The notes beneath the pieces were generated by a model that saw only the letters and a list, made by a program, of their open reading frames with translations, did no database searches and was not told the origin of the DNA. Of a DNA stretch of 64,000 nucleotides, positions 26,324 through 27,688 are shown piece by piece. A program made the translations under genes and the position numbers. Each line of letters begins with the position of its first letter. The first letter of the stretch is position 1. Source of the DNA: Escherichia coli (GTDB lineage Bacteria; Pseudomonadota; Gammaproteobacteria; Enterobacterales; Enterobacteriaceae); the NCBI RefSeq assembly GCF_048403405.1, contig NZ_CP183135.1; one strand, 5' to 3'.

Positions 26324-26345
26324 GGGGTCCGCTTGGAAAACGGAA
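26324..26345. repeat. outer 22 bp of a 38-bp Tn21-subgroup terminal inverted repeat, split by IS insertion
   Basis: GGGGTCCGCTTGGAAAACGGAA; compare Tn21 GGGGTCGTCTCAGAAAACGGAA. Confidence 0.5.
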
Positions 26346-27672
26346 TCTATGGTCACTCCCGTTTTTGCAACACCGATTTTGACGACAAGTTGGCTTGCTT
26401 GAATCTATCCGGCGTCTGAATGGGATTTTATTCCCGCGCCTTGATGAGTTCCGCGCCTGATGAACCTCCAGAAAATATACGGCTTCAATGAGCCTTTCCG
26501 TTTTACAGGTTCCTCAACAGGCCGGTGGGCCGTTAGTATCATCAATATCAGTATTCGCAAAACCAGATCAGTAATTCTTTAAACCGGTGTATTTCTGCCG
26601 TTATGCTACATAAGTTTGCTGTCGTGCCGTTAGGGCCCAGGCTATTCTGGCCAGCTTGTTTGCCAGAGCACAAGTGACGACAAAGTTGCTTTTCCGGCAC
26701 AGTAAATCCCTGACCCAATCGGCCAATTTGCCAGACTGGTGTTCCAGTTTTTGTATGAATACCCTGGCACATTGAACCAACAAAGTTCGGATCTTTTTAT
26801 TACCTCGCTTACTAATTCCCAGCAATGTCGTCCTACCTCCCGTGCTGTACTGCCGAGGTACAAGCCCTGTTGCCGCCGCAAAGTCACGGCTGCTGGCGTA
26901 CTGCTTCCCGTCGCCAATCTCAGTTGAAATAGTACTCGCTGTCAGTGTTCCGACGCAGGGAATGCTCAGCAAGCGCTGTCCAACCTCATCTTCGTCCAAC
27001 TTTCGTTTCAACTGGGATTCCAAATCTTTAATCTGCTCAACAAGATAGTGATAATGCTGTTGTAATTTCAGCAATAACTGGCTGAGGTAAAGAGGCAAAC
27101 TATTATCCTCAAGAATGGTACTCAGTCGGCTAATAACGGCAGCTCCTCGGGGAACGCTAATGCCAAATTCCAGCAGAAAAGCATGCATTTGATTGGTTGT
27201 TTTTACCTTATCCTGAACCAGGGATTCACGGACACGATGCAGAGCCCGCATTGCCTGCTGAGATTCCGTTCTGGGCTGCACAAAACGCATAGACGGACGC
27301 GATGCAGCTTCACAAATAGCTTCGGCGTCGACAAAGTCGTTTTTATTGCTTTTAACGAACGGGCGGACAAATTGTGGTGATATCAGCTTTGGGGAATGCC
27401 CCAACTCTTCCAACTTGCGTGCCATAAAGTGAGAACCGCCACAGGCTTCCATTGCGATGGTTGTAGCGGGGCATGTCGCCAAAAATTCGATCAACTTTGG
27501 CCGGGTAAATTTTTTACGGTAAACAGCCTTCCCGCGACGATCCTGGCAATGAATATGGAAAGAGTTTTTACCCAGATCGATACCAATGAGCGCAATGTTT
27601 TCCATGATAGTTCTCCGAATGAAAGCCTGTCCTCAGCATAGTACCGGGAAGGAGGGAGTGACCATCTCATTA
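26346..27672 (-). mobile_element. IS4321/IS5075-like IS1111-subfamily element inserted in the transposon terminal repeat (boundaries approximate, about 10 bp either way)
   Basis: 334-aa IS110-family transposase; subterminal inverted repeats GGAGTGACCAT / ATGGTCACTCC; placement chosen to give a 1327-bp element and a contiguous 38-bp host repeat. Confidence 0.7.
26601..27605 (-). CDS. IS110/IS1111-family transposase (334 aa)
   Basis: Protein MENIALIGIDLGKNSFHIHCQDRRGKAVYRKKFTRPKLIEFLATCPATTIAMEACGGSHF... Confidence 0.88.
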   Translation of the reverse strand: MENIALIGIDLGKNSFHIHCQDRRGKAVYRKKFTRPKLIEFLATCPATTIAMEACGGSHFMARKLEELGHSPKLISPQFVRPFVKSNKNDFVDAEAICEAASRPSMRFVQPRTESQQAMRALHRVRESLVQDKVKTTNQMHAFLLEFGISVPRGAAVISRLSTILEDNSLPLYLSQLLLKLQQHYHYLVEQIKDLESQLKRKLDEDEVGQRLLSIPCVGTLTASTISTEIGDGKQYASSRDFAAATGLVPRQYSTGGRTTLLGISKRGNKKIRTLLVQCARVFIQKLEHQSGKLADWVRDLLCRKSNFVVTCALANKLARIAWALTARQQTYVA

Positions 27673-27688
27673 ATTATCCCACGCTAAG
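27673..27688. repeat. inner 16 bp of the split 38-bp terminal repeat (contains the tnpA stop codon)
   Basis: Minus strand CTTAGCGTGGGATAAT; tnpA stop TAG at 27684-27686. Confidence 0.5.

Follow-up and report, generated by a model that had tools for sequence, protein, structure and literature searches.

The 64,000-nucleotide stretch of Escherichia coli DNA analyzed here (assembly GCF_048403405.1, contig NZ_CP183135.1), referred to as the window, carries a single copy of the insertion sequence (IS) IS4321 at 26346-27672 on the minus strand. With high confidence, this element is a member of the IS1111 group of the IS110 family that is inserted site-specifically between positions 22 and 23 of a 38-bp terminal repeat of a Tn3-family transposon, with its transposase gene pointing out of the transposon and without target duplication. 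The element has exact ends, precisely interrupts a repeat that existed before it, and keeps the same position and orientation in all copies examined.

IS4321 was defined on the plasmid R751, and the two copies of this plasmid served as the reference. The window element differs from the R751 copy at 13404-14729 of NC_001735 by four nucleotides and two amino acids (99.7% identity) and from the copy at 10134-11460 by 39 nucleotides and three amino acids (97.1%). The usual ISfinder rule for the same IS is a nucleotide identity of at least 95%, and both values lie above it. The NCBI Prokaryotic Genome Annotation Pipeline (PGAP) names the identical DNA in the plasmid pCREC571-1 'IS110-like element IS4321 family transposase'. 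The R751 identities and this name indicate that the element is IS4321, not merely IS4321-like. It is also identical at 1327 of 1327 positions to copies in plasmids of Klebsiella, Enterobacter and E. coli.

The transposase gene (26601-27605, minus strand) encodes 334 amino acids, a length in the range of about 330-350 given for DEDD-type IS110-family transposases, and matches the NCBIfam profile NF033542 'IS110 family RNA-guided transposase' with an E value of 7.5e-102 (341 bits against a cut-off of 140). It contains the IS1111-type motif GLVPRQYSTG at residues 247-256, which fits the C-terminal motif GL-P----S/TG described in PMC11187229. The gene is flanked by 255 nt of non-coding sequence downstream, as against 67 nt upstream. 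Subterminal inverted repeats of 12 bp are located on the minus strand at 27654-27665 (left; ATGGTCACTCCC in the IS orientation) and at 26349-26360 (right; GGGAGTGACCAT in the IS orientation), such that GGGAGTGACCAT is found in the window at 27654-27665 and its complement at 26349-26360. In the IS orientation, seven bases, TAATGAG (27666-27672), lie beyond the left repeat and three bases, AGA (26346-26348), beyond the right one. In the orientation of the window, the element starts with TCTATGGTCACTCC and ends with GGAGTGACCATCTCATTA, the last base of which is 27672. Ten copies from seven sequence records, namely those of the window, R751 (two copies), Klebsiella pneumoniae, Enterobacter hormaechei, three E. 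coli plasmids and an E. coli chromosome (two copies), all start with TCTATGGTCACTCC, finish with GGAGTGACCATCTCATTA, and occupy the same position of the repeat in the same orientation, in five variants of the repeat. The insertion point follows ...ACGGAA in all ten copies, one variant being short of a G (...ACGAA).

The outer 22 bp of the interrupted repeat, GGGGTCCGCTTGGAAAACGGAA, are located at 26324-26345, and the inner 16 bp, ATTATCCCACGCTAAG, which contain the stop codon of the transposase gene of the transposon (tnpA), at 27673-27688, both on the plus strand. The two halves are contiguous in the plasmid p675SK2_B (NZ_CP027703.1), which has the same backbone without the IS and is 100% identical to the window at 22824-26345 and 27672-31372 (3.5 and 3.7 kb). 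These two alignments overlap by one base. Therefore, the element is exactly 1327 bp long, its placement has an ambiguity of 1 bp (26345-27671 is equally possible), and the target is not duplicated. Removal of the 1327 bp restores GGGGTCCGCTTGGAAAACGGAAATTATCCCACGCTAAG exactly. The joined 38-mer and the end of tnpA are uninterrupted, with 100% identity, in 25 of 25 plasmids among the matches listed. Because the 38-mer is thus contiguous in at least 25 plasmids, the split-repeat pattern is not due to chance. The 1365-bp stretch composed of the repeat halves and the IS is 100% identical in 25 of 25 plasmids among the matches listed, and at least 5000 records match it. A full-text literature search for the repeat halves as strings found no papers.

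These results bear out most of what an earlier reading of the same sequence, the first-pass annotation, had proposed. It had described an IS110-family transposase gene in an IS4321/IS5075-like element, and both the profile match and the alignments agree with this. Its repeat halves are present as it gave them, and the length of 1327 bp, which it had assumed, and the ends derived from it are right, because ten copies and the empty-site plasmid agree on them. It had named ends placed elsewhere, with no repeat rebuilt from the flanks, as the outcome that would speak against it; the ends are the same in ten copies and the 38-mer is rebuilt exactly. It had also noted subterminal repeats. The sequence GGAGTGACCAT lies at 27655-27665 and is found again, reverse-complemented, at 26349-26359. 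These repeats are indeed present, but extend to 12 bp instead of 11 bp.

The first-pass annotation had further suggested that the joined halves give a 38-mer resembling the Tn21 repeat but differing at several positions, and had proposed a comparison with this repeat. Upon this comparison, the reconstructed repeat is identical to the intact Tn21 repeat of the window (6228-6265) at 30 of 38 positions and differs at eight, in good agreement with the suggestion. It is identical at 25 of 38 positions to the sequence that we take to be the repeat of Tn501, and at 26 of 38 to that which we likewise take to be the repeat of Tn1721. Over the five occupied repeat variants, the invariant block is AAAACG(G)AA/A.TA, where the slash marks the insertion point, as it does in the nucleotide sequences below. 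The Tn21 repeat of the window is itself a canonical one (GGGGTCGTCTCAGAAAACGGAAAATAAAGCACGCTAAG, minus strand), located at the end of a Tn21-type tnpA gene of 988 codons (3266-6232). It is a perfect IS4321 target yet is empty, with the occupied variant repeat lying about 20 kb away.

Partridge and Hall are said to have found in 2003 that IS4321 and IS5075 insert at one position, and in one orientation, of Tn21-type 38-bp repeats, without duplication of the target and through a circular intermediate. The first-pass annotation had likewise referred to the targeting of these repeats by the two elements, and the window element does lie in the known position and orientation within a 38-bp repeat. 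The element would move through a circle with abutted ends (AGATAATGAG), in which the junction would read AGA/TAATGAG. When the ends are joined in silico, the junction reads ...CCATAGA/TAATGAGATGG..., and the promoter-like sequence TTGCAA-N17-GATAAT spans it, which suggests that formation of the circle may create a promoter. Such promoters, formed where the ends abut, are known in the IS110 family. A passage of PMC8269217 cites Partridge & Hall 2003 for the transposition of IS4321/IS5075 into Tn21-related terminal repeats.

How the element recognizes this site is probably explained by the 255-nt non-coding region 3' of the transposase gene (26346-26600, minus strand), referred to as the tail, which is predicted from its conservation, fold and position to encode a guide RNA (seekRNA or bridge RNA). 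In IS1111 elements, the long non-coding region typically lies 3' of the transposase gene, and in four further members of the group it has been shown to give a seekRNA (Siddiquee et al. 2024, PMC11187229). According to this work, two short segments of the seekRNA match opposite target strands, the top-strand match is located 5', and the two overlap where the element inserts; the target logo of IS4321 was also recovered there, from nearly 900 insertions. In the tail of the window element, the predicted guide 1, AAAACGGAAA (26495-26504, minus strand), matches the target over 10 nt across the insertion point (AAAACGGAA/A). A site-spanning match of 10 nt is reached in 25 of 5000 shuffles. The predicted guide 2, UAUUUUC (26471-26477, minus strand), is located 17 nt 3' of AAAACGGAAA and matches the opposite strand across the site (TATT/TTC), at seven of seven positions in the Tn21 repeat and at six of seven in the variant repeat. 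The predicted fold places the two segments opposite each other, as the 5' and 3' arms of one internal loop, with a 6-bp stem below it and a GGCU...AGCC hairpin above it. Over positions 33-255 of the tail, only one base differs between IS4321 and IS5075, as against a difference of 6.6% over the whole elements. The tail would give rise to a seekRNA or bridge RNA, of which the loop arms AAAACGGAAA (5') and UAUUUUC (3') would base-pair across the insertion point, each with a different strand of the repeat.

The first guide match lies within the invariant block of the occupied repeats. The variant repeat keeps 10 of 10 bases of guide 1 and six of seven bases of guide 2, the mismatch being that the target reads GAA/ATTA and the guide GAA/AATA. 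We propose that this repeat is still hit, despite its eight differences from the Tn21 repeat in 38 positions, because these guide bases are kept. The sequence GAAAACGGAA at 51752-51761 is a lone 10-mer without an adjacent repeat and is taken to be due to chance.

Several points weigh against the overall reading of the element. The identity of the element was judged by the R751 copies, which stand in for the ISfinder entries. The assignment of guides to IS4321 is inferred from sequence matches, and the element lies outside the set of IS1111 members in which seekRNAs were examined by experiment. The second match, with 7 nt, is short enough to occur by chance alone. An Rfam scan of the IS finds no family that matches the tail, but only a chance hit to a small nucleolar RNA with an E value of 0.85. 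The stability of the predicted fold relative to shuffled sequences is weak, with a z-score of -1.5 for 66 nt and -2.3 for 255 nt. In the second half of the tail, a donor-binding loop was sought, and only matches of 5-6 nt to the IS ends (CUCAU[U] and AUAGAU), too short to claim, were found.

Because of the lack of an Rfam match, the weak z-scores and the restriction of the seekRNA experiments to other members of the group, it may be argued that the transposase protein reads the repeat directly, without an RNA guide, and that the matches in the tail arose by chance or have some other function. In IS1111 elements, the subterminal repeats also suggest that the ends are recognized to some extent by protein-DNA contacts (PMC11187229). 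This explanation is nevertheless unlikely, because the 10-nt match exactly spans the insertion point, an overlapping match to the opposite strand is located on the facing arm of the same loop and in the 5'-to-3' order of the IS1111 seekRNAs, conservation is higher in the tail than in the coding region, and RNA guidance has been demonstrated in four relatives. RNA-guided targeting through the tail therefore remains the favored reading, as a prediction from sequence, for IS4321.

It is very improbable that the element is IS5075 instead of IS4321. The two are close relatives of the same length with the same ends and the same target, and many papers and tools label copies such as this one IS5075. 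However, copies with the PGAP name 'IS5075 family' show 87-88 differences from the window element in 1327 positions (93.4% identity), as compared with four and 39 for the R751 copies of IS4321, and PGAP calls the identical DNA 'IS4321 family'. The published identity between IS4321 and IS5075 is about 93%. Hardly credible at all is the idea that the flanking 22 and 16 bases are relics carried along with the IS, for example by homologous recombination of the 1365-bp block, and not a functional transposon end: this block is 100% identical in many unrelated plasmids and adjoins either end of the transposon, but the 38-mer is uninterrupted at the tnpA end, with the stop codon inside, in many plasmids and is present in the same backbone without the IS, and the full transposon has this repeat at each of its ends, which accounts for the identity of the blocks.

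The state of the insertion site varies among related plasmids. In near-identical IncF backbones, the junction between the repeat and an adjacent IS5-family fragment is found in three states: empty (p675SK2_B, record L008, 3501-3538), occupied by the window variant of IS4321 (L006), and occupied by a variant that differs by 39 nt (L002, 17302-18628). Accordingly, either the site has been filled at least twice independently or one variant has replaced the other. The two IS4321 copies of R751 (L003; 10134-11460 and 13404-14729) differ from each other at 42 positions (about 3%), and both of these distinguishable variants occur on modern clinical plasmids. In pS12-1027 (L007), the region 18760-20559, when compared with 26219-27730 of the window, has the same outer junction followed by the IS, which is the second IS4321 variant at this junction, and then by the cargo end of the transposon in place of the tnpA end. 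The inverted interior of the transposon in this plasmid has likely arisen by recombination of two IS4321 copies in inverted orientation, each located in one of the repeats. We consider it possible, but only tentatively, that the variant repeat, mismatched to guide 2 and yet hit repeatedly, the three states of the site and the flipped interior are a natural record of the mismatch tolerance of an IS1111 seekRNA and of the inversion of whole transposons by pairs of IS4321.

Two occupied repeats of other records vary in sequence. In an Enterobacter plasmid (L004, 3652-3673), the outer half of the occupied repeat is short of one G (GGAAAACGAA as compared with GGAAAACGGAA), a loss that either took place once the IS was in or stems from a sequencing error. 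On an E. coli chromosome (L005, 2513-3839), an IS5075-type copy is located in a third version of the repeat (GGGGCCCGCTTGGAAAACGGAA/AATATCCTACGTTAAG) and adjoins a truncated Tn3-family tnpA gene.

The transposon into which IS4321 is inserted survives in the window as a remnant, consisting of one repeat and about 2.4 kb of the 3' part of tnpA. The truncated gene (27684-30092, minus strand) comprises the 3' 803 codons, its 5' end being cut by IS26 at 30093. The surviving part matches the Tn3-family profile NF033527 with 1039.9 bits against a cut-off of 500, over residues 195-974 only of an open reading frame of 999 codons. This frame, at 27684-30683 (minus strand), is a chimera, composed of the 803 tnpA codons and a read-through into the opposite strand of IS26, and in the identical plasmid pCREC571-1 the tnpA region is annotated by PGAP as a 'missing N-terminus' pseudogene. 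IS26 has removed the upstream portion of tnpA, the resolvase gene tnpR, the cargo and the other end of the transposon. A search of the window for the other end of the transposon, its cargo and the rest of the IS5-like element finds none of them. Splitting of a repeat into an outer part of 22 bp and an inner part of 16 bp should disable an end of a Tn3-family transposon. This effect is moot here, because most of the transposon has already been removed by IS26 and it cannot move.

A full-length relative of this transposon is located on the chromosome of E. coli TOK-001 (L005), with 94.8% DNA identity and a TnpA protein of 994 amino acids, close to the length of about 1000 of Tn3-type DDE transposases. 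Its two transposition genes are divergent, with tnpA read from the minus strand and tnpR from the plus strand, and the cargo consists of genes for OsmC, TetR, a carboxymuconolactone decarboxylase-family protein, thioredoxin, an alkene reductase, DsbA and a short-chain dehydrogenase/reductase (SDR). The same 38-mer is found at the tnpA end (in the window, L005, L006 and L008) and at the cargo end (L001 and L007). The cargo end of L007 (pS12-1027) contains at 18760-19073 a relic of 314 bp that is about 76% identical to the 3' end of tnpA (27804-28125 of the window, inverted), which suggests that this end has been borrowed from a second, related transposon. When aligned end to end, TnpA is 56% identical to the Tn21 TnpA of the window. 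A protein search with TnpA finds enterobacterial relatives at 72-90% identity, followed by proteins of 988-989 amino acids, the length of the Tn21 protein, at 55-57%. In this search for a named relative of TnpA, all sources give only 'Tn3 family transposase', and no transposon name is found. Two names were considered and rejected. ISKpn24, suggested by the label 'IS5 family transposase-IS5075-ISKpn24 residual' (PMC7319535), is ruled out, because PGAP gives the name 'ISKpn24 family' to an IS66-family element in p11219-CTXM, a plasmid reported to contain ISKpn24. Tn5403 is rejected because PGAP does not apply its own name 'Tn5403 family transposase' here; this is indirect, being judged by PGAP naming only.

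The first-pass annotation had called the host a second transposon of the Tn21 subgroup. A second transposon was indeed present, but only its repeat and 803 codons of tnpA are left. As for the subgroup, the likeness of the repeat (30 of 38 positions) and its use as a target of IS4321/IS5075 agree with the assignment, but the TnpA identity of 56% and the divergent tnpR of the full copies do not. In the TnAs1/Tn21-type element examined, tnpR and tnpA are co-directional. The host transposon is thus related to the Tn21 group by its repeat and its transposase but lacks the co-directional tnpR-tnpA arrangement, and the name Tn21 subgroup fits it only loosely.

On the outer side, the repeat is abutted by a fragment of an IS5-family transposase gene (26219-26323, minus strand), as mapped from the PGAP annotation of the identical DNA of pCREC571-1. 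The DNA to which this fragment belongs is that into which the transposon once inserted. A truncated agp gene (25437-26069) lies to the left of the fragment. On the right side, the tnpA remnant adjoins IS26 (30093-30912, plus strand), which truncates the transposon and is followed by aac(6')-Ib-cr, blaOXA-1, truncated catB3, a second IS26 and an IS66 remnant. Over the surrounding 20 kb, the identity to several IncF (FIA/FIB/FII) multiresistance plasmids of E. coli is 99.8-100%.

Two other repeat-like structures of the Tn3 type are observed in the window. A 1.6-kb segment at 53468-55094, which carries a fragment of an enolase gene and crcB (fluoride efflux), is located between inverted Tn3-type 38-bp repeats (GGGGGGCGAGGGCCAGTGATGTAAAAAACCACGCTAAG and, in the opposite orientation, a nearly identical copy). 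The segment resembles a small non-autonomous Tn3-derived element; of 5426 E. coli genomes, 1007 carry it, nearly always on a plasmid. Its repeats lack AAAACGGAAA and therefore are not a target of IS4321. A weak Tn3-type repeat-like sequence, GGGGTCAGTTTGGATATAGAGAATTATTGTACTATAAG, at 15241-15278 (minus strand) lies beside an isolated IS26 end (15180-15193), and may be due to chance or represent the remnant of another transposon.

The insertion of IS4321 described here is already known and very common, and is not new. It is a further example of the use of transposon ends by IS4321/IS5075 as a safe landing site, and thousands of plasmids with these elements and targets are on record. In annotation, the insertion serves as a boundary marker for a resistance-region remnant on an IncF plasmid that is common worldwide, the order being truncated agp, the IS5 fragment, the IS4321-split repeat, truncated tnpA, IS26, aac(6')-Ib-cr and blaOXA-1. 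The insertion also explains pitfalls of automatic annotation, since the 999-codon open reading frame is no real gene and the transposon there is immobile. A mildly useful by-product is a concrete and testable prediction of the guide segments of IS4321.

When compared with known systems, the window element is the same as IS4321 of R751 in its length of 1327 bp, its transposase of 334 amino acids, its 12-bp subterminal repeats and its 7 and 3 end bases, as well as in the insertion point (GGAA/A) and the orientation within a Tn21-type 38-bp repeat. It differs in that the repeat has the Tn21-type sequence in R751 but is a variant in the window. IS5075 shares the length, ends, target position and orientation, and is almost identical at positions 33-255 of the tail, but the two elements differ mainly within the coding region and over the first 32 nt of the tail. 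IS621, the bridge-RNA element of the 2024 bridge-RNA papers, belongs to the same transposase family. So do ISEc11, ISKpn4, ISPa11 and ISPst6, for which the seekRNA has been shown by experiment and which also have a long downstream non-coding region. These four elements have two segments for opposite target strands that overlap at the insertion point, with the top-strand segment 5', while the corresponding segments of IS4321 are predicted only; their target sequences differ from that of IS4321. The host transposon resembles the Tn21, Tn1696, Tn501 and Tn1721 group in its 38-bp repeat, GGGG...ACGCTAAG, with the tnpA stop codon inside, but differs from it in the divergent tnpR of its full copies and in a cargo of redox and stress genes without mer or an integron. 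Tn5403, a small Tn3-family transposon of Klebsiella, likewise has 38-bp repeats and is common on the same kinds of plasmid, but PGAP uses 'Tn5403 family transposase' for its transposase and 'Tn3 family transposase' for that of the window, a comparison made by name only.

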